Positions 36,827 through 64,000 of a stretch of DNA of 64,000 nt are shown piece after piece. The DNA is taken from the NCBI GenBank assembly GCA_036172245.1, contig JAYWIR010000033.1, forward strand, positions 620,001 through 684,000, in the 5' to 3' direction. The number at the start of each line of letters is the position of its first letter. Position 1 is the first letter of the stretch. Below the pieces are notes generated by a model. It made no database searches. It saw nothing but the letters and a program-made list of their open reading frames with translations, and was not told where the DNA came from. The stretch comes from Raillietiella orientalis (taxonomy: Eukaryota). A program made the position numbers and the translations under genes.

Positions 36827-36889
36827 TTCACCACTACACACGAGCGAGTCAGGAGCTTGTGAGGAACACGTCCGACCGTCGGCACTTCT

Positions 36890-38254: not shown

Positions 38255-39442
38255 GGAGTTTTTCTTTTCTGGTGTTCCGTGTGTGTTTCGCGGCCGTTGA
38301 CAGGCAGAAATGCCTGTGAACGCCGCAGTTTCAGGTGAGGGAGGCGCGAAGACCGCGTCTCCCAAGCCAAAGGAGGTGGGATCACGCCCCACCACTTCTT
38401 CAGAACCCGCCACTACGGCGAGGGCCTGGAGCGCGGTGGAGCGGCGGAAACGCCCGATGTCGCCGCCGAAATCCAATCCTACATCCAGAAGGGCTACAAT
38501 CCGGCCCTCCTGTACAAGGTAGGCAATTTATATTCCCCGATAAGGGCGCGAAAGTTCGGCAATGCCATCAAAAAGATGGGCATTGCCGACCATGAAATTC
38601 TTTGCCTCTCTATACGGAGCGGAGGGCAGTTGGCGGAGCTCATCTGCAAGGATGCAGCTCTTACCCACAAGATGCTCTGCACGCCCGTACAATTTGAGGG
38701 CAGGAATTTACTCCCACACACGGTGGACCACTCCATTGTGGTCCACCTAACAGGGACAACAGTGCGGTTGGATGAGAACGCCATCCGCGCTGAACTGGAA
38801 AAATTCGCTTACGTTTTCGCGATGTGGAGGAAGCCCAACACCTTTGGAGTGAACGGTGCATTCAGTGGGCGAGTAGGCGCGCGCGTGAAGCTTCGAGAAA
38901 GCGTACAGCTTCCCCACAAGCTCCAAATCGGCGACGAGTTCGTCGACAGTTCGTTTGTGGGGAAACCTAAATTCTGCGGCAATTGTAAGACGTTCGGGCA
39001 TTTGAAAAAGCGGTGCCCGGACGCAGTTTGCCCAACGTGCGGCGCGAAGGGCCACACCAAAGTGGTGTGCCCGATGAACGTCGCTCCAACGCCGGAACTT
39101 CCGCAAAAGAAGGAAGGGAAGGCAAAAATAGTGATAAACCCCACAAAAGGGGATCAGCCGTCGGCTTCGACAAAAGTCCCGCAGCAGGAAAGGGACTCGG
39201 TACAGGAGCTCCCGGAAAAGACTGCCGACAAGGAAGGCTGGCAGCTGGTCACCCGTAAAGTTAAAATCGTTAAAAAAACCGCGCCCGCACCGGCGAAAGT
39301 GGTGAAGGGCAAGGGGAAGGTCCGGCCACGTCCAACAACCAAAGCGTGCAGCGTGGCCATCAAACGCGTGCCGGCGATCGATACTCGCTCCGCTGAAGGA
39401 TCGATGCGATGTGACGTCACGCCAGCTGTTCAACCCGCCGCC
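38255..39442 (+). mobile_element. Tx1-like element 0, 5' part of ORF1 (interrupted)
   Basis: ATG 38310, frameshift, ORF 38576..39445 with CGNCKTFGHLKKRC and CPTCGAKGHTKVVC; ends at TSD CAACCCGCCGCC (39431-39442). Confidence 0.88.
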
Positions 39443-39533
39443 TGAGAGGGTGGACGTACTTTTGTGGTGCTCCGCGTTTTTCTCGCGAGTGTTTTCGGTG
39501 TTTTCAGCTGTGAGCGGTTGTTCCTGGGCAGAG

Positions 39534-41204: not shown

Positions 41205-41212
41205 ATACACCA

Positions 41213-44200: not shown

Positions 44201-44770
44201 CGGCAGCTAGCGGACGCTGCGACACCGAGAGTCCCGCCTAACGGAATTCGACGCTGGGGCGAGCTACTCGGACTATCTCCGGAGGAGATGAAGTGGCCTT
44301 CGGCGTCCTGGAACAGTGGATCCCTCCCCCTGAAATGGCAGGATGTGGCGTTGCTTGTGGTCCTCTGGGGACTTCCATTCAAAGCACGCCTTCATCACAC
44401 AACCCGGGGGGCTGTGGATCCTTATTGTGACCGGTGCGGGGAAAAAGAGACCTTCCCCCACCTTCTCATCGAGTGCAGTGCCATCCGCCCTTTATGGGAT
44501 CGCCTTACGGCGATCCTGGACTTGCGCGGATGCGGCCCTAAGGACGTTTTTAGGCTCCTCTTCCGTAGTGACGACTTGTCCCCCCCCTCTTCTGTAGCAG
44601 TCCTCTGCTGCATTCGAGGGATCGTGGCGGCTTGGAACGCCACCAGAAGAAGACGTCAGCCAACTGGCAACGCCTTACGGTTCACCCGCCTATTCGTCCG
44701 AGACGTCTGCAAGTGGCGCCACTTGGGCGCAGAGAGGACTCAGCTTGTACGGATCCTAAATAGGATCTAG
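41213..44770 (+). CDS. ORF2 APE endonuclease - reverse transcriptase - CCHC (L1/Tx1 clade), 1185 aa
   Basis: LLQETH, IAGDFN, IDH, SDH; APGEDGLPAEFY, WRPITVVNADAK, DLHKAFD, GIRQGDSLSPLLF, AYADD; CDRCGEKETFPHLLIEC. Confidence 0.96.
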   Translation: MRGLASCRRLRITCWKVNGLRDDGKRRDVAAILRDFDLVLLQETHDLRPGDVQEIERIAGGRLLWRNGTDNSCGVAFLLKPTVDNSLRSARFDGDGRVGQLVFKWSDSIDLVVTNLYAPVSSHRAEERTAFFETLRRDWLAEAGVRRAHLIAGDFNLRLLAGAPSGRAQLVNELCAAMHARNLFSGDAGRDRNIDHMFLDNHLCTRVGTRGTLPAELSDHPRLVLELHPRNKGPPLKTWRLPGDWLRLAGAAEHLRCFLRGFQLQTLADWDEMKCSVREFCDQFPLERLPPGFGEGVRNERAYLQARRYSRRPDVRRLAEFKAEAERQAWQSGSACLLDHQGQERSSPAQVSRIVREFYSSLYAPLTPERHFAQRLLPDGAPALKEEDRSRLAEPFTMAEIISAINRLKRRKAPGEDGLPAEFYHRFAPELASLVLRLSALIREHGEVPASFRSAKVRLLQKSGDLRNIGNWRPITVVNADAKLYAKLWAERLGRVAASVVSPEQTYAVPGRTMEANLLLASSWWQLRQRVAQDGQGSLAPPSDQEDRAEGGMDSAGAFAVAVDLHKAFDCVDQDLLLELLERMGFPAVLQSYLRSCWRNASMNICFSGRHLYGVPVRRGIRQGDSLSPLLFSIYFELVLRAYRVTLAALPSSCAGTPAVSAYADDLLLLLPGATPASALEDFFELLRRGTGLEVNRAKSSMVFVGSAWAGRSDWIRLGIPTDRCFKYLGVPMGEFCAAEAWSDRLQKAALATGPFQESKLYLQERAAVGNAFAAPLLRPLLFVCPAPYFIRKRAAGLLRTVLWGKGRSRVRLKDLCAPRKDGGLGVLTLERIELQLRFRTLALAAELWDTPWCVPARLLAQRACGFDGLLSFLLARDRREAHGCLILRRMEVAVRENAWISCRPGNYSAWLHESVSTWVKIHVSAGTRNTCLQRHARWKLQEIVQSHEKRMWALITPLAPVLPFLIDARDSSELGKWNVSCTIGGRTQTIMAWTSRQLADAATPRVPPNGIRRWGELLGLSPEEMKWPSASWNSGSLPLKWQDVALLVVLWGLPFKARLHHTTRGAVDPYCDRCGEKETFPHLLIECSAIRPLWDRLTAILDLRGCGPKDVFRLLFRSDDLSPPSSVAVLCCIRGIVAAWNATRRRRQPTGNALRFTRLFVRDVCKWRHLGAERTQLVRILNRI

Positions 44771-45020
44771 AGGACCTATCCGCCCGCACGGTGATCCCCT
44801 CCCTGCCCTCCCATTCCCGAAACATTTGCTCCCTTCCATACTTCAACTATTTGTTTGTTTTTTGTTTTGTTCTTTCCCAACCCCCGCGGATCGGATGGAC
44901 CTCTACGGCATAGCGCCCGTAAATACCAAGCTGTTTTGTAGTGGTGGACGTTTGGTTTCACCACGCGACAATCCATTGTGATTTTATTCTTTTGAATAAA
45001 TGCCCCGGCATATCCGGGTG

Positions 45021-48000
45021 AAAAAGCGGTTCCGGCTTCGTGCGGCGAAATCGCTACGGTCGCGATCGATAGCGCGGCACACGTTGCCGCGAGCGAATCT
45101 ATTGTTCCAGTCCAGTCCACTGGAAGCGTTGTAGCGGCGAGCGAAAGCTCAGCCGCTGCGGTTCCGAACGATAGCGCGCCAGTTGCCGCTATCGAATCGG
45201 TTGTTACGTCACCCGACTCGCCAACAGGCGGCGAAATCCGTGATGACGTTGAACGTATCTCTGATGCAAACTTCGCGCAAGCCGCGGAAGAGTTGGCTGC
45301 CTTCCTGAGGCAGCCCGTCAAGGCCGAGAAGAAGGCCGTTCGACGCCCGGCTACGGCAAAAGACCCGGAAACCTCCGAGTCTGACGCCGAAAGCGGGAAC
45401 TCGCCCTCCGTTGGCTTGCCGAAAATAAAACATAAAAATGCAACAGGTGCTCGTAGGCGTGCTGTCACCTCTCAGGAAGAGGTTGAAATGGCATCTGACA
45501 GCGAGGAAGAGTCCATGTGCGTTGCACAATGCGACTCCGTGCCTGAGAGCATCCTTTACCAACTGTTAACACAGTCCACGGCCGACGGAGTGAGCGATGC
45601 CCCTGAACACTCCAACGACATGGACCCGGACCACTCGTCTTCTGAACAGGAGGCGGTTTCTTCCACCCCACCATAACAACACCATTGCGTGGACTCGCCT
45701 CCTCTAGCCGCTTGCGAATAACCTGTTGGAACGTAAACGGGTTGAGCAGCGACGGGAAGAGGCGAGACGTAGCCGCCATTCTGCGAGACTTCGACCTGGC
45801 CCTACTGCAAGAGACTCACGTGCTCACAACAGAAGCAGGCCAGGATTTCGAAAGAATCACAGGAGGGCGGCTACTGTGGAGGAACGGAACAGACTACTCC
45901 TGCGGAGGGGCCTTTCTGCTGAAGCCGGCAGTCGAAAACTCTCTGCGTAGCGTTCGCTTCGACGGGGACGGTCGAGTTGGACAACTTGTTCTCAAGTGGT
46001 CCGAATCGATCGACCTCGTTGTGACGAACATATACGCGCCAGTGAGCAACCACGGGGCCGAGGAACGCACTGCGTTCCTCGAATCCCTGCGGCGAGACTG
46101 GCTGGCTGAAGCAGGCGTACGGAAGGCGCACCTCATTGCGGGCGATTTCAATCTCCGCCTGCTAACAGGTGCACCCAACAGACGAGCACAGCTGGTCAAC
46201 GAGTTGTGCGCAGCACTGAATGCGCGCAACTTGTTGGCCGGTGATGCCGGGAGAGATCGGAACATCGATCACATGTTCCTCGACAACCACCTGTGCACGC
46301 GGGTGAGAACTCGTGGAACGCTCCCGGCAGAGCTGTCCGACCATCCACGGCTCGTGCTCGACCTACATCCGCGCAACAAGGGTCCTCCCCTGAAAACGTG
46401 GCGCCTGCCAGGGGACTGGTTGCGCCTCGCAGGAGCGGCGGAACATCTGCGCGCCTTCCTGCGAGAATTACATCTTCAGACGCTCGCGGACTGGGTCGAA
46501 ATGAAGTACTCAGTCCGCGAGTTTTGCGAACAGTTTCCCCTGGAGCGTCTTCCTCAGGGCTTCGGAGAAGGTGTCAGGAACGAGCGAGCCTACCTTCAGG
46601 CCCGCCGGTATTCCAGACGACCCGACGTTCGTCGCCTGGCGGAATTCAAAGCTGAGGCGGAGAGGCAGGCCTGGCAGTCAGGCTCGGCCTGCTTGCTGGA
46701 CCATCAGGGCCAAGAACGCTCCAGCCCAGCTCAGGTAAGCCGCATCGTGCGGGAGTTTTATTCCTCCTTATACGCGCCATTAACACCCGAGTGCCAATTC
46801 GCGCAGCAGTTGCTGCCGGATGGGGCTCCCGCGATCGGGGAGGAAGTTTGTTCCAGGTTGTCGGAACCACTCCGCCATCAGTAAATTATAGACAAGAAAG
46901 GCACCAGGGGAGGACGGCCTGCCCGCGGAGTTTTACAAACACTTCGCGACAGAGCTGGCTCCCCTGGTGCTCAAGCTAAGTACGCTGATCCGCGAACACG
47001 GCGAAGTTCCCGCCTCGTTCCGATCAGCAAAAGTACGTCTCCTGCCGAAGTCAGGAGACCTACGCAACATTAGCAACTGGCGTCCCATCACAGTGGTGAA
47101 TGCGGACGCAAAGTTGTATGCCAAATTGTGGGCTGAGCGTTTAGGACCGGTGGCGGATTCCGTGATCAGCCCGGAGCAAACATACGCTGTCCCCGGGCGA
47201 ACCATGGAAGCCAACCTGCTCCTCGCCAGCACATGGTGGCAGTTGCAACAGCGCTTTGCACAGGACGGTCAAGGGAGCCTTGAGCACCCCTCTGACCAGA
47301 GAGACCCGGTAGAGGGTGGCGCGGAATCGGCGGGAGCCTTCGCCGTCGCTGTCGACTTGCGCAAAGCATTCGACTGCGTCGACCAGGATCTCCTTCTGGA
47401 GCTCCTGGAACGCATGGGTTTCCCTGCCGTGCTTCAATCTTACCTGCGCTCCTGCTGGCGCAACGCGTCAATCAATATCGGTTTCAGCGGCCGGCACGTG
47501 TACGGCGTGCCCGTACGCCGCGGCATCCGGCAGGGTGACAGCCTGAGCCCCTTGCTCTTCAGCATCTACGTCGAGTTGGTGCTGAGGGCATACAGGGTAA
47601 CTCTGGCAACCCTGCCGAGCTCGTGTGCCGGCACGCCTGCCGTGTCGGCCTATGCAGACGATCTTCTGCTGCTGCTTCCCGGGTCCACCCCGGCGAGTGC
47701 ACTCGAGGACTTCTTCGAGTTGCTGCGCCGCGGGACGGGCCTGGAGGTGAACAGGGCGAAGTCGTATATGGTCTTCGTCGGTTCGGCGTGGGCTGGACGG
47801 TCGGACTGGATCCGCTTGGGGATCCCCACGGGCAGGTGCTTCAAGTACCTCGGCGTACCGTTGGGGGACTTCTGCGCAGCACAAGCCTGGTCCGACCGTC
47901 TCCAAAAGGCAGCGTTGGCGATCGGTCCGTTCCAAGAAGGCAAGTTCTACTTGCAGGAACGGGCCGCGGTGTGGAACGCGTTTGCGGCTCCCCTCCTTCG

Positions 48001-49478
48001 CCCCCTACTTTTTGTTTGCCCCGCCCCTTATTTTATTCGAAAACGAGCAGCGGGCCTCCTGAGGACAGTCCTTTGGGGCAAAGGGAGGTCCCGTGTGAGG
48101 CTCAAAGACTTGTGCGCTCCACGTAAGGACGGTGGACTTGGCTTACTTACGCTGGAGCGCATCGAAATACAACTTCGATTCAGGACTCTCGCCCTTGCGG
48201 CAGAATTGTGGGACACGACTTGGTGCGTTCCAGCACGCCTCCTGGCCCAACGAGCCTGCGGAATCGGCGGACTTTTGTCGTTTCTGTCTGCGCGTGTCTG
48301 CAGAAGACCATACTGTGGCTCTATGCTGCGACGCATCTTTGTTGCGGTTCGGGAGAACGCCTGGATCTCCTGCCTCCCAGGGAACTACTCCGCCTGGTTG
48401 CACGAGTCAGTCTCCACCTGGGTCAAGATCCACGTTCCGGCGGGCACAAGGAACACTTGTATGAAAAGGCACGCCCGCTGGACGCTGCAGGAGATCGTGC
48501 AGTCCCACGACAAGCTTCTGTGGGCCTTGATAACCCCCCTCGCCCCAGTGCTGCCCTTCCTTGTGAATGCCAGGGACAGTAGCGAGCAGGGGAAATGGAC
48601 CGTGTCCTGCACTATAGGCGGCAGGACACAATCGATAAAGGCGTGGACATCTCGGCAGCTAGCTGACGCTGTGACGCCGAGTGTCCCGCCCAACGGAATT
48701 CGACGCTGGGGCGAGCTACTCGGACTATCTCCGGAGGAGATGAAGTGGCCCCCAGCGTCCTGGAACAGTGCATCCCTCCCCCTGAAATGGCAGGATGTGG
48801 CGTTGCTTGTGGTTTTCTGGGGACTTCCATTCAAAGCACGCCTTCATCACACAACCCGGGGGTTCTGTGGATCCTTATTGTGACCGGTGCGGGGAAAAAG
48901 AGACCTTCCCCCACCTTCTCATCGAGTGCAGTGCCATCCGCCCTTTATGGGATCGTCTCGCGGCGATCCTGGACTTGCGCGGATTCGGCCCAAAGGACGT
49001 TTTCAGGCGCCTCTTCTGTAGTGACGCCTTGTCCCCCATCTCTTCTGTAGCAGTCCTCTGCTGCATCAGAGGAATAGTGGCGGCTTGGAACGCCACCAGA
49101 AGAAGGCGTCAGCCAACTGGCAACGCCTTACACTGGACTCGCGTTTTCGCGCGAAGTGTCTGCAAGTGGCGCCACTTGGGCGCTGAAAGGACTCAACTTG
49201 TGCGGATCCTGAATAGGATCTAGAGGACCTCTCCACGCGCACCGTGATCCCTTCCCCGCCCTCCCACCCCTACAACATTTGTTCCCCCCCACATTTGAAC
49301 TTTTTGTTTCTTTTTGTTTTTCTTTATTTCCCATCCCCGCGCATCGGAAGGACCTCTCCGGCACGGAGCCGGTAACCAGCAAGGTGTTTTGGAGTGGTGA
49401 ACCTTCGGGTTCGCCACGCTACATTTTTCTGTAATTTTATTTCTATGAAATAAATGCCCCGGCACATCCGGGTGTGAA
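45021..49478 (+). mobile_element. Tx1-like element 2, 5'-truncated in ORF1, frameshifted ORF2
   Basis: ORFs 45293..45676, 45685..46884, 46967..48883, 48795..49223 closely match element 1; AATAAA 49449 plus hairpin. Confidence 0.93.
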
Positions 49479-50680
49479 CAACCCGCCGCCGCGCGAACGC
49501 CGACGCCGCGACAAAGTCGCGAGCCCAGCGTGAGCAGCGACGACCGGGACTTCAACAAGGCGGCGGAAGAGTTGGCAGCCATGCTCCAGCAGCCTCCCAA
49601 GGCCCAGAAGAAGGCCTTGAGGCGTCCGGCTGAGGCGAAAGGACCGGAGACTACCGAGTTTGAAGCCGAAGCCGGCAACGCTCCGGCTGTCGCTCTCCCG
49701 AAGCGCCAAGCGGGCCGCAAGGTAGGCAACCCGCGGCGCTCCGCACCTTCACCGGCGGAGGAGGAAATGCGGTCGGACCACGACGACGGGAAGGCGATGT
49801 CAGCGAGACCTCGCGACTTCTCGTCGGAGGCGGCCCAGGCCAAGCAGGATCCTCCAAGCACCACCACAACCACCGACGGACCACCTCCTTGCGAGGAACA
49901 GCCCGTCGCAATGGACACACAACTCCCGCCTGCTGTTAAGCAGACGGAGGACGGTAAGCAATTATAAACACACCAACGCGTGAACTCTCCTCCTGCCGGC
50001 GACTGCGCGTAATCTGTTGGAACGTCAGCGGGTTACGCGACTTCGGCAAGAGGAGAGAAGTGGCTGCCAGCCTGCGGGACTTCCACCTGGCGCTTCTGAA
50101 GGAGACGCACGTGCTCCACGCAGAGGAGGCCCAGGAAAACGAACGGATCGCAGGCGGGCGACTCATATAGGAAAACGGAAAAGACCGCACCCGCGGTGTG
50201 CCTTTCATGCTCAAGCCAGCCGTGGTTAATGCGCTGCGCGACGTGCACTCCGACAGGGAAGGTCAAATCGGGCAGCTTGTTGCCAAGTGGTTTGACGCGA
50301 TCGACCTCGTCGTGACCAACGTGTACGCGTTCGGCACGAGCCACAGGCACGGGGAACGCACTGCGTTCTTCGAAGACCTTCGTCGAGATTGGCTGGCCGA
50401 AGCAGACATGCGAAAGGCGCACCTCATTGCCGGGGACTTTAACGTCCGCCTGCTGGCAGGTGCGCCCGACATTCGCGCACAGCTGGTCAACGAGATGTGC
50501 GCTGCCATGCACGCGCGCAACTTGTTGGCCGGTGACGCCGGAACAGAGACGAGGATCGACCACATGTTTCTCGACAACCACCTGTGTTCGCGGGTGGAAA
50601 ATCGAGGGGCAGTGCCATCCGAACTTTCCGACCATCCCCGGCTTGTGATAGAAATACACCCGCGCGTTAGAGGTCCACCC
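49479..50680 (+). mobile_element. Tx1-like element 0, remainder (ORF1 tail and APE)
   Basis: Starts with second TSD copy CAACCCGCCGCC (49479-49490); DFNKAAEELAAML; APE in 50198..50794. Confidence 0.87.
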
Positions 50681-52422
50681 AAAACACAGTCCGCGTCGTG
50701 TCCGCGAAAAACGCGAGAAAGCGCGCGGCCAAAAAGAGGAAAAAGCTGGCAGCTCGTTCTGCTGCTAAGGAGGTCACTTCCGCCACCAAGGTGAAGGCCA
50801 GCCCCGAGACCCCGGCGAAAAACGCCGAAAAGGTCGAAGGCGAGGGTCAAGAGCCAGGGTGGCAAAAGGTCGACCCCAAGAAAAACTCCCCTAAGAAGGG
50901 AAACAACGTGGCGAAACGGAGCGAAACTGCTCCGCGCCGCGAAAAAACCAAAAGCTGCTGCGTTGTCGTAGAGCGGATTCCCGCCATCGACGAATGCGGC
51001 GCTAAAGAACTCGCTGCTGCCCCTGCTCAACCCTCCGTTGACAGTGTCAACAAGGAGGGGAGCGAGGCGGCGGCGTCCTTCATCGAGCCCACGCTCGATG
51101 ACGTCGCCTTCGCGAACGCCGCGGAGGAGCTGGCTGCCTCGTTGCAGCCGGTTGCCCCCAAGGCTGGCAAGAAGGCCGTCAGGCGTCCGGCTTCCCCTCA
51201 GGAGTCGGCCACTTCCGACCCCGAGGTGAAGGCCGGAAACACAGCATCCATCTCCTTGGCACCCCGCAAAAAGGCAGGACGAAAGTCCACAATGCCCCGG
51301 AAGATCATCTCCCCCGACGAAGGGGAAGAGATGGCTTCCGGCTGCGAGGGTGCGATGAGCGTATGAAACTTCCGCGACCCATCGCCCGAGAGAATCCCAC
51401 GCGCAAACACGGAGGAGATGGAGGGGGTGGAGGCCGAACAGGTGCCTTTGGTGCCTGAAGAGGCCTCCGTCCCCATGGACATCCCGAACACCTGCCCCGC
51501 GGCAGGTGGTGCAGCGCCACCTTCCCAGCAATAAAGCCGGGAATCGCTTCTCGCCGTCGTCTTCTGATCGCCTGTTGGAACGTGAACGGGCTAAGCGACG
51601 ACGGCAAGAAGCGTGACGTGGTCGCCACCCTGGCATCCTTCGACCTGGTGCTGCTGCAGGAGATCCACGTGATCTCCGCAGATCAAGCCGGGGAGATCGA
51701 ACGGATCTCGGGTGGTCGGCTGCTGTGGCGCTGCGGTACCGCGAAATCTAGCGGTGTCGCCTACCTGCTCCGACCAGCCATCGAGGCCGCAATAAAGGAC
51801 GTACGGTTTGATGACGCCGGTCGCGTCGGTCAGCTGACTCTGAGCTGGTCCGACTCAATCGACCTGGTCGTCACCAACCTGTACGCTCCTAGCGGTAAGT
51901 ACGCGTTGAGGGCGAAGGGAAGAAGAGAATTCTACCTTGCCCTCGGACGCGATTGGCTGATCGAAGCAAGTGTTCGCAAAGCGCACCTGATCGCAGGTGA
52001 CTTCAACCTGCGCCTGCTTTCAGGTGCGGCGGATACACAGAACGACCGCGTCAACGAGTTGTGCACGCAAATGCACACGTGCAACTTGCTGGCCGGAGAT
52101 ACGGACATGGAACGGAGCATCGATCACGTGTACCTTGACCAGCACCTATGCACTCGCGTGGGCAGGCGCGGCAAGTTACCGTCCGAGCTGTCGGACCATG
52201 GCCGAATCGTGTTCGAAGTGCATCCGCGCGACAAGGGCCCGCCCTCGTCAGCTTGGCGTCTGCCAGGGGACTGGCTGAAGTTCCCGGACGCGGCGGAACA
52301 TCTCCGCGCGTTCATACGTAACTTCAGCATGCGGACGCTTCAGGACTGGGACCACTTCATGCGGTCGGTCCAAGAGTTCTGCGACCGGTTCCCTTTGCAT
52401 CGGCTACCTGCGGAATTTGGGG
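50681..52422 (+). mobile_element. Tx1-like fragment (ORF1 tail and APE) of another subfamily
   Basis: ORF 50698..51366 (FANAAEELAASL) and 51582..52493 (LLQEIH, IAGDFN, IDH, SDH). Confidence 0.87.
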
Positions 52423-55400
52423 TTGTCACCCGGGTACGCCCGGAGCGTTTATTTTCAAAAACTCTACATAAACGTGGTACGAGGCCCCACTAACTGCCAC
52501 ACAACACCGGACCTGCCGGGACGCCGGGACGAAGCCCGGCGTGACGCTCCTCGACAGTGGAGGGGGATAGGAATCAAAACAAAAAGAAAAATAAAGATAT
52601 GAAAAGAAACACAAAAAGAGTTTGGAGGGAGGGGAAGGGATCACAATCCACTGGGAGGAGGGCCCATCCTTCGCAGGATCCCCTCCAGGTCCATCTTCAT
52701 GCATTCCAGATGGGGCCATCACGCAGCTCTCCGCATGAAGCAGAACGCATACGGGATGACATCCCTCGCGTTGGCATCCGCTCCTTCCTCGCGAATGTCG
52801 CTCCACGCCGCCACGATGCCCCGGATGCAGCAGAGGGCTGCAATGGCTGCGGCGGGCTGCAAGGCGTCCCGCACGAAGAGGGGCCGAAGAACGTCTCTGG
52901 GCGCGCTGCCCATTGGGAGCCCGAGCGTCGTCCCGAACCGTTCCCACACGGGTCGGAGGGCAGCACAGTCAGCTAGTAGGTGGGGGAGCGATTCCCGCTC
53001 CCCACACCTGGCACACTCAGGCCTTACACTTCCCCGAGTCCAGTGGAAGCGGCGCGCGTTGCAGGGTAGACCCCAGTGTAACAGTAGCAGCGCCGACTCT
53101 TGCCACTTAAGGGGGAGAAGCCTAGATCCGATGAATATTAGGGGCCACTTCAGGTCATCCGTCGGGATGCCGAGCAGCTCGCCCCATCTACGAAGTCCAC
53201 GAGAAAAGGCACTCGGGGTTGTGGCATCTGCCAGTTCTCCCATGGTCCAACCGCTCATCTTCTTTTCCTTGCCTGCGATTCGGCAGGAGACTTGCCACTT
53301 TGGCTTGCGGCCGCTGGTGAAAGCCCTTCATTGGAAGGGCAGGGTCGAAGCTAGGGGGGTAGTCTCCGCCCACGTGCTCCTGGCGGGACACTCCAGAGTA
53401 GTCTGCAGTGTGCAGCGGGCGTTGGGGCCAAATCGCAGGCGGTTCCAGTCCGGGGAAGTCTGGAGGTTCAGCTTAGCATACGTCGCAACTGTTTCCTCCA
53501 GCCAGGCGGAGCAGATGGCGGGGCTGCATACCGTCCAGCCGTTGTCTCTCGCCAGGGCTTCCATGCGCCCAAGGATAAGGCCGCATCTTCTGACCTTCCT
53601 GCCAGGGCACAGACGGTAAGACGCGAGTCCATGCGTCCTGGACACACGGCTGCCGAGGAATCGTGCCGGAACGCACCAAGGGGTGCTCCATGACTTTGCT
53701 GCCATGGCGATAGTGCGCCATCGCAGCTGTACAGGCGCTCCAGCGTCAGGAGGCCGAGACCGCCGTCCGGACGAGGAGCGCATAAGTCATCTAGAGGCAC
53801 ACGTGGCATCTCGCTGCCCCAGAGGGCGATGCGGAGTAGGTCCTTGGTCCTCTTTTTAATGTCACGAGGGACGGGGCAAACAAAAAGCAGGGGGCGGAGG
53901 ATGGGAGCCGCGAACGCGTTCCACACCGCGGCCCGTTCCGGCAGAAGGAACATGCCTTCCTGGAACGGGCCGATTGCCAACTCTACCTTTTGGAGACGAC
54001 CTGAACAGGCTTCTGCGAGGCAGAAGTCCCCCAACGGGACACCCTGGTACTTCAGGTACCTGTCCGCGGGGATCCCCAAGCGCATCCAGTCAGGCCGTCC
54101 GAACCACGTCGCACCCACCGGTACGACCGACGACTTCGCCTTGTTTACCCCAAGTCCAGTCCCACGACGTAGCAGGTCGAAGAAATCCTCGACTGCGGCT
54201 GCCGGGGCGGACATAAGCAACATGAGCAGAAGCTCGTCGGCGTATGCTGCTACGGCGGGCGTGCCGAGGCACGAGCTGGGCAGGGCAGCCAAAGTCACCC
54301 TGTACGCTATCAGTACCAACTCAAAGTAGGTGCTAAAGAGCAGGGGAATGAGGCTATCGCCCTGCCGTATGCCCCGCCGCACCGGCACGCCGTACACCTG
54401 TTGGCTGGAAAAGCAGATGTTAAGGGTGGCGTTGCGCCAGCAGGAGCGCAGGAAGGAGAGAAGGGAGGGTAAGAAGCCCATGCGACCCAGGAGCTCCAAC
54501 AGTAGCTCAAGGTCAACGCAGTCGAACGCCTTATGGAGATCGACCGCGATCGCTAGGGCCCCCTTCCCAGCCCGGGTGTCCATTTTCAGCCCAGCTGGCG
54601 GCCCCAAAGTGGGGTTTCCAATCTTTCCACCAGTTTCATTCAGGGAGCGCTGCACATGAACCATGTACTCGCGAAGAACAGGTTGGCATCCATACTTCGC
54701 ACGGAAACAGCGTATGTCTGCTCCGGGCTAATCATGGAATCTGCCACCTGTCCTAGACGCAAAGCTTGCAGTCCAGCGACCAGCGTGGCGTCCGTATTCA
54801 CGATTGCGATCGGACGCCAGTTGCCTAGGGATCTCAGGTCTCCTCCTTTCGGGAGGAGCCTCACACGGGCTGACCGAAACGAGGCGGAAACGTCGCCTTC
54901 GTCTCGGATCAGCCCGGTCAACTGGAGCACCAGGGGGGACAGCTATGTCGCGAAGCATTGAAAAAATTCCGCAGGCAGGCCGTCCTCCCCTGGCGCCTTA
55001 CGCCTCTTGAGCCTTTTAATACCAACGAGAATTTGACCGGTAGAAAAAGGCTCGTCGAGGTTGATCCTCTCCTCCTCCCCTATTGCCTGGCCTCCATCCG
55101 GAAGCAGGAGCCGCGAGGCGTCCCGCTCGGGGGGTGCCCTAGCGTAGAGGGAGGAATAATACTGCCGCACGAGGTGCCTGATCGCGGGTGGGGCCGATCG
55201 CTCCCGGCCCTGGTCGTCCAGCAAGCTGGCCGACTCGGATTGCCAGGCTTGGCGCTCGGCCCCACCTCGATATTCGGCCAAGCGACGGACATTGCGGGTC
55301 CTCTCGTACCGGCGGGCCTGTAAATAAGCCCTATGGTTCCAAGCCCTCTCCTTAAATCCGGGGGGCAGCCGGTGCAGGGGGAACTCCTCGCAGAACTCGC

Positions 55401-58093
55401 GGACCGAGGCCTTAAAGAGGTCCCAATCTTTGAGACTGCGGAGGGTGACGCCTCTCAGGAATTCGCGAAGGTGTTCCTTCGCACCTGAGAGCCGCGTCCA
55501 GTTCCCAGGCAACCGCCACGCCCTGTTTGGGGTTCCTTTATCGCGCGGGCATACCTCGGCGATTAACCTGGAATGGTCCGACAGCGTCGACGCAACTTTT
55601 CCCCGTTTGCCGACCCGCGAGCACAGGTCGACGTCCAGGAAGAAGTGGTCGATGCTGCGGTCCATTCCCTCCGCGTCCGCCAACAAGTTGCGCGTGCGCA
55701 TGGCAGCGCACAACTCGTTGGCCGTGCGTTCTTGTGCTTCGGGCTCACCTGAATGCAGACGGAGATTAAAGTCCCCAGCTATCAGGTGTCCCTTCCGCAC
55801 GTTCGTATCGGCCAGCCAGTCGCGGTTCAGGGTTTCCAGCAACCTGGTACGGTCGCGGTATCCCCCTTTCCCGCTTGGGGCGTACACGTTCGTGACGATC
55901 AATTCGATCGAGTCGGACCAGCTGAGAGTCAGCTGACCGACCCGACCGTCGTCATCGAAGCGTACGCCCTTCACGGCAGCGTCGATGGCCGGCTTCACGA
56001 AAAACGCGACCCCACAGGTGTTGCGGGCGCCGCATCGCCAATACAGTCGACCCCCCGCGATCGTCTCGATCTCCTGGACGTCTGCCGAGGTGATCACGTG
56101 GATCTCCTGCAGCAGAACCAGGTCGAACTCACGCAGGGTGTCTGACGTAACTCGTCTGTTGCCGTCGTCGCGCAGCCCGTTGACGTTCCAACTGGCCACG
56201 CGGATTCGACGGCGACAGGCGAGCCCAGGTGTTATTCCTGGGAAATCGGCTCTGTGGCGTCCGCCACCTGTTGGGGCGGGACGCTAATTGGGGCAGGAGG
56301 GACAGGTGCCTCGAGCACCTAATCCCCCTTCCCCATCGGTGACGGGGCGTCGGGCGGGTCACCCTCCGGTGGGGTCGCGCCTACCTGTTGGCCCTCCTCC
56401 ATACGGGTGGGCTGTACAAAGTCCGCGCCGGCAAAGAGGACCTCGCCGCCCTGCTCACCCTCCTCCATGGGGGTGGCCTGCTCGACGACTTCCGCGCGTG
56501 AGATTTCCCCCTCCGGGGTTCCCACGCTGCCGTCGGCTTCCAGCTTCTCCTCCTCGCTCGTAAAGAGGAGGCGCCTCCTCGGCTTTTGGGACTTGTGTCC
56601 CGTCTTCCGGGAGGGTTCCTTCGACGAGGAGGATGCACTTCCGGTTCCCAGGTCGCACTCAACTGCGGGGGCCTTCTTCGGCGGAGCCGGCCTTCGCACG
56701 GCCTTGCGTGAGGGGTTCTCACGCTCGGCCAGCGTGGCCGCGAGCTCCTCCGCCGCCTGCGCGAAGGCGGCGTCCTCGCTTTCGGCGCGCGCTTCGAACG
56801 GCTCACCCTCTGTGCAAACAGAGGGTTCGTCGTCGCGAACCTCGGGCGCGGCGAAACGGCAAGGGGAGGCTCGTCGCCTCGGGTGGCAGCCTCGGGGACG
56901 GCAATCCGTTCGAGTGCCACCGTGCACTCGCGAAGAGTTCTCGAGCGCGGACCGGGTTTATTCGGTTTCGCGCTCTTTTCTCTCTTCGCTCTCGCGGGTT
57001 CCACGTGGGGAACTTTTTTTTCTTTTCTGGCCTTTACCAGCTTCCATCCTTCTTCCTCTCCCGCGTCTTCAGCAGGTTTTTCCTCCGATGCCTGGGTGGG
57101 AGGAACAGGAGATGGCGGCTGGGGCCGGCCAGTTTCGCGATAAGGTCTTTCGACCTTTTTTCCTTTTTTAGCCTGCGCATTTTTGGCAGCAGGTGGCACC
57201 GGGGTGGGGCGTTTGGGGCACACACGACGAACGTGTCCCTTCACCCCGCACAAGTGGCACTCGATATTCGGGCACCGCTTGCGCAAGTGCCCTACTGCAT
57301 CGCAGTAGCCACAATAGCGGGGTTTCCCCACGTACCAGAGGTCGACGGATTCCTTTGCGACCTTTAGTTTGTGGGACAAGCCACTGCCCTCATTAACCGT
57401 TACACGCGCTGCGGCCTGGCCTCCGAAATGGCTATTAAAGCCTTCGAAAATGGTAGGCTTTGGCCACAACGCGTATATCTCACCGTATTTACTAAGTTCA
57501 TTACTCACCGCAGATCGCGTCATGCGGTTCGTAATGCCGGTTAGATGGACCACTACGGAGCGGTCCATGCTAACCGGAAGGATCTTCCGGCCATCCACAT
57601 TAATCGGGGTGTTAATGAGGCGCTGTGCTAAGGCTACGTCTTTGCAGACGACCTTCACGCGCTGCCCCCCGCTGAGTACGGAGAGGCCCTCAAGATCCTC
57701 CTCGCGTACAGGGAAATCCTGCAGTGCCCTACTAAAAGCCCGAGCGGTGCGACCATCAAACAGGGGTCCTACTTTATAAACCAGAGATGGTTTATATCTG
57801 GAGGCCCTGTAGGCCGCTTGCTCTGCCAAGGTTTCCGCGCTCGGTGCGGAAACCATGGCGCTCCACGTCCTTGGCGTTGCCGGGGATGATTCCGGGGCGA
57901 ACGCCCCTGATTCTGCAGGCTGTGGGGGTGGGCAAGCCTCCCTCACACCTACCTCCATCGTGGTGTCCTCAAGCATCGTTGCCATCGGACACCAACGATG
58001 TTCCACACGAACACACATAAAGAAAAAAGCCGCTTCCTGTCGACTCGCTCGGGAGCTCAGCAAAAACACGTCCGCTCGCCAAGGGAGTTGGGG
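52423..58093 (-). mobile_element. Tx1-like element 5, near full length, frameshifted
   Basis: ORF1 56381..58069 (CGYCDAVGHLRKRC, CHLCGVKGHVRRVC), APE 54943..56199, RT 53468..54930, CCHC 52719..53258, AATAAA plus hairpin at 52427-52453. Confidence 0.93.
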
Positions 58094-61000
58094 TTTCCAC
58101 CCGGGTACGCCCGGGGCGCTTATTGTATAAAACTCTACAAGAAAACGTGCTACAAGGCCTTACCAACGGCCACACAACATTGGACCTGCCGGGACGCCGG
58201 GACGTATCCCAGCGTGACGCTCCTAGACAGTGGAGGGGGATGGGGATTAAAACAAAATAAAAAATAAAAATAAAGGAAAACAAAAATAGTTTGGAGGGAG
58301 GGGAAGGGATCACGTTCCACTTAGAGGAGGGTCCATCCTTCGCAGGATGCTCTCTAGGACCATCTTCATGTTTCCCAGATGGAGCCATCTCGCTGCTCTC
58401 CGCATGAAGCAGACCGCATACGGGATGACATCCCTCACGTTGGCATCCACTCCTTTGTCGCGAATGTTGCTCCATGCCGCCACGATGCCCCGGATGCAGC
58501 AGAGGGCTGCGAGGGCTGCGGCGGGCAGCAAGGCGTCTTGCACGAACAGGGGCCGAAGAACGTCTCTGGGCGCGCTGCCCATTGGGAGGCCGAAGGTCGT
58601 CCCGAACCGTTCCCACAGGGGTCGGAGGGCAGCACAGTCAACTAGTAGGTGGGGGAGCGATTCCCGCTCCCCACACCTGGCACACTCAGGCCTTACACTC
58701 CCACGCGTCCAGTGGAAGCGGCGCGCGTTGCAGGGTAGACCCCAGTGCAAAAGCAGGAGCGCCGACTCTTGCCACTTCAGGGGGAGAAGCCTGGATCCTA
58801 TCAGTATTGGGGGCCACTTCAGGTCATCCGTCGGGATGCCGAGCAGCTCGCCCCATCGACGAAGTTTATGAGGGAGGGCACTCAGGGTGGTGGCATCTGC
58901 CAGTTCTCCCATGGTCCAACCGCTCATCTTCTTCTCCTTGCCTGCGATTCGGCAGGAGACTTGCCACTTTGGCTTGCGTCCGCTGGCTAAAGCCCTTCGT
59001 TGGAAGGGAAGGGTCGAAGCTAGGGGGGTAGTCTCCGCCCACGTGCTCCTGGCGGGACACTCCAGAGTAGTCTGCAGTGTGCAGCGGGCGTTGGGGCCAA
59101 ATCGCAGGCGGTTCCAGTCCGGGGAAGTCTGGAGGTTCAGCTTAGCATACGTCGCAACTGTTTCCTCCAGCCAGGCGGAGCAGTTGGCGGGGCTGCATAC
59201 CGTCCAGCGGTTGTCTCTCACCAGGGCTTCCATGCGCCCACGAAGAAGGCCGCATCTTCTCACCTTCCTGCCAGAACACAGAAGGTACAACGCGAGTCCT
59301 TGCGTCCTGGACTCACGGCTGGCGAGGATTCGGGTCGGAACGCACCAAGGGGTGCTCCATGACTTTGCTGCCATGGCGAGGGTGCGCCATCGCAGCTGTA
59401 TGTCCAGGCGCTACAGCGTCAGGAGGCCGAGACCGCCGTCCCAACGAGGAGCGCATAAGTCATCTAGAGGCACACGTGGCCTTCCGCTGCCCCAGAGGGC
59501 GATGCGGAGTAGGTCCTTGGTCCTCTTTTTAATGTCACGAGGGACGGGGCAAACAAAAAGCAGAAGGCGGAGGATGGGAGCCGCGAACGCGTTCCACACC
59601 GCGGCCCGTTCCGGCAGAAGGAACTTGCCTACCAGGAACGAACCGATTGACAACTCTACCTTTTGGAGACGAACTGACTAGGCTTCTGCGAGGCAGAAGT
59701 CCCCCAACGGGACACCCTGGTACTTCAGGTACCTGTCCGCGGGGATCCCCAAGCGGATCCAGTCAGGCCGTCCGACCCACGTCGCACCCACCGGAACGTC
59801 CGACGACTTCGCCTTGTTTACCCGAAGTCCAGTCCCACGACTTAGCAGGTCGAAGAAATCCTCGACTGCGGCTGCCGGGGCGGACATGGGCAACATGAGC
59901 AGAAGGTCGTCAACGTATGCTTCTACGGCGGGCGTGCCGGGGCGCGAGCTGGGCAGGGCAGCAAAAGTCACCGTGTGCGCTCTCAGCACCAACTCAAAGT
60001 AGGTGCTAAATAGCAGGGGAATGAGGCTATCGCCCTGCCGTATGCCCCGCCGCACCGGCACGCCGTACACCTGTTGGCTGGAAAAACAGATGTTAAGGAT
60101 GGCGTTGCGCCAGCAGGAGCGCAGGAAGGAGAGAAGGGAGGGTGGGAAGCCCATGCGACCCAGGAGCTCCAAAAGTAGCTCCTGGTCAACGCAGTCGAAC
60201 GCCTTATGGAGATCGACCGCGATCGCTAGGGCTCCCTTCCCAGCCCGGGTGTTCATTTCCAGCCCAGCTGGCGGCCCCAAAGTGGGGTTGCCAATCTTTC
60301 CGCCAGTTTTATTTAAACAGCGCTGCACATGGAAACATGTGCTCGCGAAGAACAGGTTTGCATCCATACTTCGCCCTGAAACAGGGTATGTGTTCTCCGG
60401 GTTAACTATGGAGTCTGCCACCTGTCCTAAACGCGAAGTCCACAGTCCTGCGACCAGCTTAACGTTCGTATTCACAATTGTGATCGGACGCCAATTGCCT
60501 AGGGATCTCAGGTCTCCTTTCTTCGGGCGGAGCCTCACACGGGCTGACCGAAACCAGGCGGGAACGTCGCCTTCGTCTCGGATCAGCCCGGTCAACTGGA
60601 GCACCAGGGGGGACAGCTATGTCGCGAAGCATGGAAAAAATTCCGCAGGCAGGCCGTCCTGCCCTGGCGCCTTACGCCTCTTGAGCCTTTTAATACCGGC
60701 GAGAATTTCACCGGTAGCAAAAGGCTCGTCGAGGCTGATCCTCTCCTCCTCCCCTATTGCCTGGCCTCCGTCCGAAAGCAGGAGCCGCGAGGCGTACCGC
60801 TCTGGGGGTGCCCTAGCGTAGAGGGAGGTATAATAATCCCGCACGAGGTGCCTGATCGCGGGTGGGGCCGTTCGCTCCCGGCCATGGTCGTCCAGCAAGC
60901 TGACCGACCCGGATTGCCAGGCTTGGCGCTCGGCCCTGCCTCGATATTCGGCCAAGCGACGGACATTGCGGGTCCTCTCGTACCGGCGGGCCTGTAAATA

Positions 61001-63765
61001 GGCCCTATGGTTCCGAGCCCCCTTCTCAAATCCAAGGGGCAGGCGGTGCATGGGGAACTCCTCGCAGAACTCGCGGACCGAGGCCTTAAAGAGGTCCCAA
61101 TCTTTGAGACTGCGGAGGGTGACGCCTCTCAGGAATTCGCAAAGGTGTTCCTTCGCATTTGAGAGCCGCGTCCGGTCCTCAGGCAACCGCCACGCCCTGG
61201 CCGGAGGTCCTTTATCGCGCGGGCATACCTCGGCGATTAACCTGGAATGGTCCGACAGCGTCGACACAACTTTTCCCCGTTTGCCGACCCGCGAGCACAG
61301 GTCGACGTCCAGGAAGAAGTGGTCGATGCTGCGGTCCATTCCCTCCGCGTCCGCCAACAAGTTGCGCGTGCGCATGGCAGCGCACAACTCGTTGGCCGTG
61401 CGTTCTTGTGCTTCGGGCTCACCTGAATGCAGACGGAGATTAAAGTCCCCAGCTATCAGGTGTCCCTTCCGCACGTTCGTATCGGCCAGCCAGTCGCGGT
61501 TCAGGGTTTCCAGCAAGCTGGTACGGTCGCTGTATCCCCCATTCCCGCTTGGGGCGTACACGTTCGTGACGATCAATTCGATCGAGTCGGACCAGCTGAG
61601 AGTCAGCTGACCGACCCGACCGTCGTCATCGAAGCTTATGCCCTTCACGGCAGCGTCGATGGCCGGCTTCACGAAAAACGCGACACCACAGGTGTTGCGG
61701 GCGCCGCACCGCCAATACAGTCGACCCCCCGCGATCGTCTTCATCTCCTGGACGACTTCCGAGGTGATCACGTAAATCTCCTGCACCAGGGCCAGGTCGA
61801 TCTCACGCAGGGTGTCGGCCGTATCTCCTCTGTGGCCGTCGTCGCGCAGCCCGTTGACGTTTCAACTGGCCACGCGGATTCGACGGCGACAGGCGAGCCC
61901 AGGTTTTATTCCTGGGAAATCTGCTCTGCGGCGTCCGCCACATGTTGGAACGGGTCGCTAGTTGGGGCAGGAGGGACAGGTGCCTCGAGCACCTAATCCC
62001 CCTTCCCCATCGGTGACGGCGCGTCGGGCGGTTCACCCTCCGGTGGGGTCGCGCATACCTGTTGGCCCTCCTCCATACGGGTGGGCTGTACAGGGTCCGC
62101 GCCGGCAAGGTGGACCTAGCCCCCCTTCTCACCCTTCTCCATGGGGGTGGCCTGCTCGACGACTTCCGCGCGTGAGATTTCCCCCTCCGGGGTTCCCACG
62201 CTGCCGTCGGCTTCCTGCTTCTCCTCCTCGCTCGTAAAGGGGAGGCGCCTCCTCGGCTTTTGGGACTTGCGTCCCGTCTTCCGGGAGGGTTCCTCCGACG
62301 AGGAGGATGCACTTCCGGTTCCCGGGTCGCACTCAATTGCGGGGGCCTTCTTCGGCGGAGCCGGCCTTCGAAAGGCCTTGCGTGAGGGGTTCTCACGCTC
62401 GGCCAGCGTGGCCGCGAGCTCCTCCGCCGCCTGCGCGAAGGCGGCGTCCTCGCTTTCGGCGCGCGCTTCGAGCGGCTCACCCTCTGTGCAAACAGAGGGT
62501 TCGTCGTCGCGAACCTCGGGCGCGGCGGAAACGGCAAGGGGAGGCTCGTCGCCCCGGGTGGCAGCCTCGGGGACGACAATCCTTTCGAGTGCCACCGTGC
62601 ACTCGCGAAGAGGTTTCGAGCGCGGACCGGGTTTATTCGGTTTCGCGCTCTTATTTCTCTTCGCTCTCGCGGGTTCCACGGGGGGAACTTTTTTTTCTTT
62701 TTTGGCCTTTACCAGCTTCCATCCGTCTTCCTCTCCCGCGTCTTCAGCGGGTTTTTCCTCCGATGCCTGGGTGGGAGGAACAGGAGATGGCGACTGGGGC
62801 CGGCCAGTTTCGCGATAAGGTCTTTCGACCTTTTTTCTTTTTTAAGTTTGCGCCTTTTTGGCAGCAGGTGGCACCGGGGTGGGGCGTTTGGGGCACACAC
62901 GACGAACGTGTCCCTTCACTCCGCACAAGTGGCACTCTATATTCGGGCACCGCTTGCGCAAGTGCCCTACTGCATCGCAGTAGCCACAATAGCGGGGTTT
63001 CCCCACGTACCAGAGGTCGACGGATTCCTTTAGTTTGTGGGACAAGCCACTGCCCTCATTAACCGTTACACGCGCTGCGGCCTGGCCTCCGAAATGGCTA
63101 TTAAAGCCTTCGAAAATGGTAGGCTTTGGCCACAACGCGTATATCTCACCGTATTTACTGAGTTCATTACTCACCGCAGATCGCGTCATGCGGTTCGTAA
63201 TGCCGGTTAGATGGACCACTACGGAGCGGTCCATGCTAACCGGAAGGATCTTCCGGCCATCCACATTCAGCGGGGTGTTAATGAGGCGCTGTGCTTAGGC
63301 TACATCTTTGCAGACGACCTGCACGCGCTGCCCCCCGCTGAGTACGGAGTGACCGTCAAGATCCTCCTCGCGTACAGGGAAATCCTGCAGTGCCCTACTA
63401 AAAGCCCGAGTGGTGCGACCATCAAACAGGGGTCCTACTTTATAAACCAGAGATGGTTTATATCTGGAGGCCCTGTAGGCCGCTTGCTCTGCCAAGGTTT
63501 CCGCGCTCGGTGCGGAAACCATGGCGCTCCACGTCCTTGGCGTTGCCGGGGATGATTCCGGGGCGAACGCCCCTGATTCTGCAGGCTGTGGGGGTGGGCA
63601 AGCCTCCCCCACACCTACCTCCATCGTGGTGTCCTCAAGCATCGTTGCCATCGGACACCAACGATGTTCCACACGAACACACACAAAGAAAAAAGCCGCT
63701 TCCTGTCGACTCGCTCGGGAGCTCAGGAAAAACACGTCCGCTCGCCAAGTGAGTTGGGGAGGGGC
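58094..63765 (-). mobile_element. Tx1-like element 6, near full length, close paralog of element 5, head-to-tail with it
   Basis: ORFs 63295..63996, 62842..63264, 60617..61786, 59678..60604, 58310..59374; AATAAG plus hairpin at 58098-58124. Confidence 0.93.
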
Positions 63766-64000
63766 CGCGTAACGAAAGGTGCTATCTTCAGGCCTGACGT
63801 TACGCGAGAACCCCCGACATGCGCAGGTTAGCAGAGTATCGAGCGGGAGCCGAGAGGCAATCCTAGGAATCCGGGTCGGACAGCTTGCTGGACGACCAGG
63901 GCCTGGAGCACTCGGTTCCCGCTCAGAAACGCGGGATAGTGAGGAAATTTTACTCCTTTCAGTACGCCAGGGCGCCTCCGGAGCAGGCTGTCTCACGACT

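Follow-up and report, generated by a model that had tools for sequence, protein, structure and literature searches.

A two-part box at the 5′ ends of R2-like and APE retrotransposons in a 64-kb window of Raillietiella orientalis DNA, read as a candidate internal downstream promoter element

The window analyzed here is a stretch of 64,000 nucleotides from Raillietiella orientalis (contig JAYWIR010000033.1, positions 620,001 to 684,000), which contains retrotransposon copies and fragments of the 28S rRNA gene. Its subject is a 22-nt two-part sequence, GGACGTGT-N7-RAGCTCC (hereafter the motif, comprising half 1, a spacer, and half 2), which recurs at the 5′ ends of elements from two clades with different endonucleases, namely an R2-like lineage with an R2-type restriction-like endonuclease (RLE; copies A to E) and a family with apurinic-type endonuclease (APE), reverse transcriptase (RT), and zf-RVT domains (copies numbered T1 to T9). 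This distribution had been proposed in a sequence-only reading of the same DNA, and all eight of the motif sites listed there are present at the coordinates and on the strands given.

The R2-like and APE elements of the window

Among the R2-like copies, A (9670 to 15173, minus strand) is full length but decayed; its RT open reading frame (ORF) spans 11166-11957, and its RLE domain, of the R2 type, 9778-10317. The best PDB matches of the RT ORF are R2 structures (E 6.5e-23 to 1.3e-20, vs ∼1e-11 for L1), and for the C-terminal ORF, an alignment to the RLE region of R2 was obtained (E 7e-10). In a scan of 88 ORFs of at least 170 amino acids, all Exo_endo_phos matches lie above window position 41000, outside the R2-like copies. 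These copies thus combine an RT with a C-terminal, R2-homologous RLE and carry no APE, as elements of the R2 clade do. The database relatives of their proteins are ∼40% identical and come from ticks, spiders, and a sponge, several of them being named R2. Protein matches in general reached at most ∼46% identity and were spread over diverse animals. The 5′ end at 36873 (minus strand), described in the earlier reading as an orphan, instead belongs to a fifth R2-like copy, E (31622 to 36888, minus strand; RT pieces at 32853-34058), which past its 15-nt leader, the motif, and 40 nt more is collinear with A-D from about +748 and then continues into the RT pieces. The 5′ untranslated region (UTR) of E is therefore ∼690 nt shorter than those of A-D, with the motif kept at its tip.

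Several further features touch this lineage. An APE-family 3′ fragment is nested in the opposite orientation within the RT region of copy E (34048-34402, plus strand). A second, AT-rich R2-like family, F (∼28353-31600, plus strand), starts abruptly inside copy D, and its RT matches R2 structures with an E of 8e-27. Moreover, the 5′UTRs of the R2-like copies contain blocks longer than the motif that are invariant in four of four copies (CCACAGTGAACCT, CAACTTTTGTGC, and GTGCTGCCATGGC; 19379-19510, plus strand; alignment columns 236-367) and that do not occur in the APE family; these blocks may be RNA elements.

The APE family is represented by T1 (39431 to 45025, plus strand), the ORF2 of which (41132-44767) is intact, encodes 1212 amino acids, and comprises Exo_endo_phos, RVT_1, and zf-RVT domains, the same three-domain set as that found in its nearest Atlas clusters. 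This architecture of an APE, an RT, and a C-terminal zinc knuckle together with a separate ORF1 agrees with the Tx1 label given earlier to these elements, and it fits L1/Tx1-type elements generally; the 3′ flanks of six APE copies differ from one another, so that no single target is evident. Two further copies, T5 (52423 to 58087, minus strand) and T6 (58094 to 63753, minus strand), are 94% identical and lie end to end, and the hexamer CCCCAA is found at the outer left edge (52417-52422), at the internal junction (58088-58093), and at the outer right edge (63754-63759) of the pair, the first two being the target-site duplication (TSD) copies of T5. In addition, T4 (51459-52416, plus strand) and T7 (63760-64000, plus strand) are the two parts of a plus-strand copy of the same family that is split by T5/T6 at a single point. 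Because of the three CCCCAA copies and the split T4/T7 copy, T5 and T6 are not independent but are one insertion, tandemly duplicated together with its CCCCAA TSD. End-to-end template jumping had been considered for the T6-T5 junction and was replaced by this duplication. Both copies do bear the motif, as the earlier reading had it, and are counted once below.

The TSD fixes the 5′ terminus of T5/T6 as (AA)CTCCCTTGGCGAGC, 14-16 nt before the motif. The terminus of the T1 subfamily, CAACCCGCCGCC, is found both at T1 itself and directly after the 3′ end of T2, and it lies 21 nt before the motif. At the latter place (49468-49540, plus strand), T3 has 12 nt of a T1-type 5′ terminus right after the T2 3′ end and lacks the motif; the terminus is followed by ∼47 nt of unmatched sequence and then by ORF1 sequence that matches T1 from ∼40787. 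This layout indicates that T3 is a head-to-tail neighbor of T2 with a ∼1.3-kb deletion that removed the motif. A 5′-truncated copy, T8 (36889 to 38049, minus strand), adjoins the leader of E with its 3′ end (..CCCGGGTGTAAAA). All six APE 3′ ends (52423-52460, 58094-58130, and 36889-36925 on the minus strand; 34370-34402, 44990-45025, and 49440-49478 on the plus strand) have AATAAA, an inverted repeat of the form CCCGG(G)-N4-5-CCGGGTG, and a short tail rich in A, in this order, and the inverted repeat is probably a 3′ recognition hairpin for the reverse transcriptase of the family.

Occurrence and conservation of the two-part motif

The motif was counted over the whole 64-kb window, and expected counts were taken from dinucleotide shuffles (100 for the exact pattern). 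The exact pattern GGACGTGT-N7-RAGCTCC has six matches, at 15173-, 19274+, 24775+, 36873-, 58073-, and 63739- (first base and strand), vs 0.00 expected. In copies A (15152 to 15173, minus strand), C (19274 to 19295, plus strand), and D (24775 to 24796, plus strand), it forms the first bases of the element; it adjoins antisense 28S sequence in A and C, and D has 66 nt of antisense 28S upstream. In E (36852 to 36873, minus strand), the second half reads AAGCTCC and the motif follows the 15-nt leader. T5 (58052 to 58073, minus strand) has GGACGTGT-TTTTGCT-GAGCTCC and its duplicate T6 (63718 to 63739, minus strand) has GGACGTGT-TTTTCCT-GAGCTCC. Tolerating up to three mismatches raised the count to nine, vs 3.6 expected, which at such stringency alone is near chance. 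The three additions are (i) copy B (17980 to 18001, minus strand), which adjoins antisense 28S and has a single mismatch in its second half, GAGTTCC; (ii) T1 (39452 to 39473, plus strand; GGACGTAC-TTTTGTG-GTGCTCC), with three mismatches; and (iii) a site at 39226-, also with three mismatches, which is not at any element end and was rejected as a chance match. The degenerate motif of T1, 21 nt from the terminus at 39431, was accepted because it aligns with T5/T6 at the homologous 5′UTR position, 82-88 nt before the ORF1 ATG. Another degenerate motif, absent from the earlier reading, was found at a further APE 5′ end, T9 (38225 to 38246, plus strand; GGACGCAA-TTGTTGC-GCGCTCC), 85 nt ahead of an ORF1-like ATG.

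A reduced core, GGACG-N12-GCTCC, has eight exact matches vs 0.21 expected, a number that was reached in none of the shuffles, and all eight lie at retroelement 5′ ends in the sense orientation. With one mismatch, the core has 13 matches vs 6.9 expected, and B is the sole addition at a 5′ end; the one-mismatch sites at 17612, 19797, 21918, and 51277 were taken as chance. Likewise, each of the seven occurrences of the GGACGTGT octamer in the window belongs to a motif-bearing 5′ end; in shuffled sequence, the octamer alone is found 2.2 times on average and 7 times at most. The idea that a short GC-rich pattern recurs here by chance, to which only the near-background count at three mismatches lends any color, is refuted by the counts for the exact pattern and the core and by the uniform sense placement at 5′ ends.

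The two halves and their surroundings have fared differently. Among the R2-like copies A-E, identity is 100% in half 1, 38.6% in the spacer, 88.6% in half 2, and 47.5% in the next 20 nt; among the APE copies T5, T1, and T9, the corresponding values are 71%, 52%, 86%, and 18%, and between the clades they are 79%, 37%, 85%, and 26%. The coding regions give a measure of divergence: at codon positions 1, 2, and 3, copies A and D differ by 8.7, 8.3, and 45.6%, copies A and E by 17.8, 14.4, and 57.6%, and the ORF2 sequences of T1 and T5 by 25, 20, and 44%, a distribution that indicates that both lineages diverged while coding. Since the halves were kept while the spacer diverged and third codon positions came to differ by 46-58% in the R2-like lineage, the motif is under selection, and in both clades this is purifying selection that acts on a pair of short boxes kept a fixed distance apart. 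This pattern also bears on the view that the shared 22 nt are a functionless relic of recombination or of a template switch between the two elements. LINE (long interspersed nuclear element) reverse transcriptases can jump between templates, and common descent is the simplest account of agreement at 15 specified positions at equal spacing; neutral sequence, however, would decay like its surroundings, which is not what the halves (100% and 88.6%) and spacer (38.6%) of the R2-like copies did, and the identical conservation pattern is found independently in both clades. Further, a 3- to 5-fold excess of third-position changes argues against recent DNA-level duplicates, and we regard a relic as very improbable. 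A common 5′ tag of the spliced-leader type was rejected, as the halves are conserved while the spacer and the leaders differ.

The antisense 28S setting of the R2-like lineage

Copy A, a minus-strand element, is flanked on both sides by 28S fragments of the plus strand, so that the R2-like ORFs run opposite to both flanks. The fragment at its 3′ flank (8800 to 9669, on the strand opposite A, where 8800 is the scan start only and the 28S match runs on further left) ends in ...GGCGGGAGTAAC, and the fragment at its 5′ flank, identified over 15140-15420, spans 15174 to 15419, the latter coordinate being approximate. The 5′ flanks of B (18002 to 18851, plus strand), C (18957 to 19273, minus strand, inverted relative to the B flank), and D (24709-24774, 66 nt) are 28S fragments as well. 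In all four copies, rRNA sequence gives way directly to the motif, and the 28S before it runs in reverse. At the 3′ end of copy A, the junction reads GCAAATAAAA|GTTACTCC, the latter being 28S; it falls at GAGTAAC|, 17 nt upstream of where canonical R2 inserts. At the insertion, ∼28-29 nt of 28S, canonical site included, are missing. The same 28S positions recur at four of four 5′ junctions (A-D) and at both readable 3′ junctions (A and G). The R2-like lineage A-D therefore targets 28S specifically, though in antisense to the rRNA, and with its shifted 3′ junction it departs from canonical R2, which inserts in the 28S sense at TTAAGG|TAGCC. No paper describing an antisense orientation of R2 in 28S was found in the literature searched, which included PMC5035012, PMC13580325, and PMC10946416 and the coverage of which was incomplete.

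Two arrangements in this part of the window concern the flanks themselves. The R2-like 3′ end G (24680-24774, plus strand) is followed by 20 nt of its own 28S 3′ flank, which is joined to the 66-nt 5′ flank of D, so that only 86 nt of rearranged 28S separate the two elements of this tandem. The 28S flanks of B and C stand head to head (18002-19273), an inverted ribosomal DNA (rDNA) arrangement, and the B/C region looks like a graveyard of inserted rDNA units.

All four 28S flanks differ from the eukaryotic large-subunit rRNA consensus at the same two bases (15184-15185, 18012-18013, 19263-19264, and 24764-24765), reading UAAGGAG in the rRNA sense vs UAAUUAG in the consensus; on the element strand, the deviant bases are CC in three copies and GC in C. 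The CC variant converts TCACTAA to TCACTCC, a sequence that fits the initiator (Inr) consensus YYANWYY and whose A precedes the motif by 14 nt. On the element strand, the 5′ flank of copy A is CATTCATGCGCGTCACTCCTTAGACGAC; it holds this TCACTCC at -14 as well as an Inr-like CCATTC sequence (GCATTC in copy A) at -27. While the UTRs of the copies are 71-82% identical, their 28S flanks are 91.5-96.2% identical to each other. A shared deviation of this kind, in flanks that are canonical otherwise, would be the expected outcome if a short 28S-like leader were transcribed and inherited with the element.

The motif as a candidate downstream promoter element

We read the module as a selected internal downstream promoter element, without committing to classical downstream promoter element (DPE) mechanics in both clades, and we place the probability of this reading at about 0.5. 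An extended downstream consensus for Drosophila LINEs, A/G-G-A/T-C-G-T-G/T-C/T, is reported at +29 to +36 of Doc, F, G, I, and jockey (PMC1636488), and GGACGTGT fits this consensus, RGWCGTKY, at eight of eight positions. Across the window, seven of the nine motif instances carry the DPE sequence (RGWCGTG/RGWCGTKY), whereas GGACGTAC in T1 and GGACGCAA in T9 keep only GGACG. Moreover, the CCATTC of copies A-D, within the antisense 28S flank, has its A exactly 27 nt before the motif. Only if transcription started at this A, and only in A-D, would GGACG be placed at +28 and the second half at +43 to +49; the A of TCACTCC, 14 nt upstream, is a second candidate start in the R2-like copies.

The mechanism that we propose would have the module lie just downstream of the transcription start, from where it would enter the RNA and be passed on with every retrotransposition. 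The RNA polymerase II (Pol II) machinery of the host would bind both halves, ∼14.5 bp apart from center to center, either through TFIID-type contacts on the DPE-like half GGACGTGT or through a sequence-specific host factor, and binding would set initiation 15-28 nt upstream. Transcription would thereby be driven by the module, with a putative start site in the 28S-derived leader of the R2-like copies. R2 is described as having no promoter of its own and as being co-transcribed with rRNA (PMC10946416). A lineage that lies antisense in 28S cannot ride on the RNA polymerase I (Pol I) pre-rRNA as canonical R2 does, and its antisense position suggests that it would need a promoter of its own.

A number of observations weigh against the promoter reading. 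Classical DPE function is described as strictly spacing-dependent (PMC8384218), and in the APE elements only 14-16 nt (T5/T6) or 21 nt (the T1/T3 terminus) separate the motif from the mapped termini, with no Inr-like sequence 27 nt upstream inside these elements. Given this strict spacing, one +28/+43 grammar cannot describe both clades; the coordinates of the earlier proposal, a DPE plus a second element at about +43 to +49, would thus apply to the R2-like copies A-D only, and there only with a start at the A of CCATTC. The distance from motif to terminus itself varies by lineage (at least 15 nt in E, 14-16 nt in T5/T6, and 21 nt in T1), and a degenerate motif is borne by T1, the sole APE copy whose ORF2 is intact. 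Family F (∼28353-31600) contains no motif, though it may be 5′-truncated. The CC variant could be the host's own 28S sequence, there being no uninserted copy of the region in the window. Every +N coordinate is hypothetical, and DPE use in the host is assumed, the best matches to the R2-like proteins being only ∼40% identical. Finally, the sample is small: a single 64-kb window with the 5′ ends of five R2-like copies and of three independent APE copies.

The module could instead act in RNA, as a 5′-terminal signal for translation, export, stability, or ribonucleoprotein assembly that is recognized by a host RNA-binding protein. It would be transcribed under any model of its inheritance, it stands at a near-constant 82-88 nt before the ORF1 ATG in T1, T9, and T5/T6, and conserved halves around a variable spacer suit a protein site on either nucleic acid. 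Against this, eight 5′ ends that were folded as RNA share no structure (Z-scores -1.64 to +1.54), the halves do not pair, and no Rfam family, hepatitis delta virus (HDV)-like ribozymes included, was found in the two 5′ regions scanned (E ≤10), where searches for known RNA families gave chance-level matches only, apart from 28S. The distance from motif to ORF also differs by ∼690 nt between E and A-D, and half 1 is itself an established core-promoter box in DNA, which together make an RNA signal an unlikely alternative. Alternatively, the module could be an integration landmark, just upstream of which APE elements would preferentially insert. Three of the six APE 3′ ends do run straight into a retroelement 5′ end (T6-T5, T2-T3, and T8-E), and in two of these junctions (T6-T5 and T8-E) the motif follows within 15-20 nt, T3 being the one without it. 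The T6/T5 junction, however, is accounted for by the duplication with its CCCCAA TSD, T3 has only 12 nt of 5′ terminus, and the remaining 3′ ends lie in unrelated sequence (the RT region of E, T4, and an unidentified flank). Since a landmark would in addition leave both the motif in the APE family's own 5′UTR and its conservation in the R2-like copies unexplained, we consider it very unlikely. An RNA polymerase III type-2 internal promoter was rejected by inference from runs of six T within ∼60 nt in B, C, D, and T5/T6 and from element lengths of >5 kb.

Origin of the module and comparison with known systems

Taking the module to be a promoter element, two origins were weighed, namely a physical swap of a 5′ terminus between the clades, for which we see roughly even odds, and convergence on one host factor, which is a real but less than even possibility. 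To assess cross-clade similarity outside the motif, the leaders and the 60-nt downstream stretches were aligned locally, and each comparison was set against 1000-2000 shuffles. None of the 15 cross-clade leader pairs was significant (best p 0.057, 0.0605, and 0.077), nor was any of the 15 downstream pairs after correction (best p 0.005, for C-T1), which bears out the earlier remark that the clades share no further UTR similarity. The sequence ACTCC, common to the leaders of T5 and the R2-like copies, is a lead only. Within the APE family itself, T5 and T1 showed no significant similarity in either the leader or the downstream comparison; the flanks are thus saturated even there, and the missing flank similarity between clades is uninformative on the origin. 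That 15 positions agree at equal spacing would favor a swap of the 5′ terminus; canonical R2 having no need of a promoter, we infer that capture by the R2-like lineage would be the more natural direction.

A fuller scenario, which we hold only tentatively and consider rather doubtful, would join these observations. An R2-clade lineage would have become reversed in 28S and would have dropped Pol I co-transcription and its ribozyme in favor of a Pol II module common to it and a co-resident APE LINE, acquired probably through capture of a 5′ terminus. Its transcription would start in a short 28S-derived leader, in which an element-borne AA-to-CC change would make an initiator, and this change would be re-delivered to every new target by homology-guided 5′ joining.

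Parts of this picture are already known from other systems. In Drosophila LINEs (jockey, Doc, F, G, and I), a downstream box likewise lies inside the element, is shared across clades, and is inherited with the element, and the spacing of the R2-like motif in A-D to the Inr-like CCATTC equals the canonical 27 nt. In contrast to those elements, the motif described here has a second half, (R)NGCTCC, at a fixed distance of 7 nt, and its carriers are R2-like RLE and L1/Tx1-type APE elements; the APE box lies 14-21 nt from the terminus rather than ∼28, and the putative Inr of the R2-like copies resides in flanking or leader 28S. 'Multiple downstream promoter modules' were reportedly described by Minchiotti et al. 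in 1997, and a module near +43 may be among them. The YY1 site of the human L1 5′UTR and the downstream core element (DCE) are likewise internal sites, situated 10-35 nt past +1, and they fix the start of transcription at the first base of the element. Multipartite in makeup, the DCE has its sub-elements near +16 to +21 and +30 to +34, which is close to the +15 to +22 and +30 to +36 that the two halves would occupy if the start were the A of TCACTCC, although the sequences differ.

Trypanosomatids offer a second precedent. Pr77 is described as a conserved 5′-terminal module with Pol II activity in L1Tc, NARTc, ingi/RIME, and DIREs (PMC4748587, PMC1874656), with an essential CGTG downstream element at +25 to +28 (PMC4748587). 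The module reported here also contains CGTG, Pr77 having been compared by description only; Pr77 comprises 77 nt and occurs among related ingi-clade elements and their derivatives, whereas the present motif comprises ∼22 nt and spans clades with different endonucleases. Canonical R2 shares with the R2-like copies the protein family (RT and RLE) and the same gene and region of 28S, but it combines Pol I co-transcription with a 5′ HDV-like ribozyme, whereas the copies in the window are antisense and have a promoter-like box at their first bases. No Rfam ribozyme match was obtained in the 5′ region of copy C (19100-19700) at E ≤10, although Rfam may miss some R2 ribozymes. While cross-clade downstream boxes in LINEs (Drosophila) and a shared 5′ promoter hallmark (Pr77 in trypanosomatids) are thus known, the second half at a fixed 7 nt, the pairing of RLE and APE carriers, and the link to an R2-like lineage that is antisense and apparently self-promoted are apparently new.

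Very few LINE promoters have been dissected beyond those of Drosophila, mammals, and trypanosomatids, and the 22-nt two-part box is a compact candidate for either a convergent host-factor site or a promoter cassette mobile between elements. If true, a self-promoted lineage of R2 lying in antisense would represent a new way of living in rDNA and would be relevant to R2 systems as insertion tools.

Apart from the retrotransposons, a 320-amino acid ORF at 1282-2241 (minus strand) matches Pfam Viral_Rep, the circovirus-type replication protein, with an E of 1.1e-10, and may be an endogenous gene related to those of circular Rep-encoding single-stranded (CRESS) DNA viruses or of a related mobile element.

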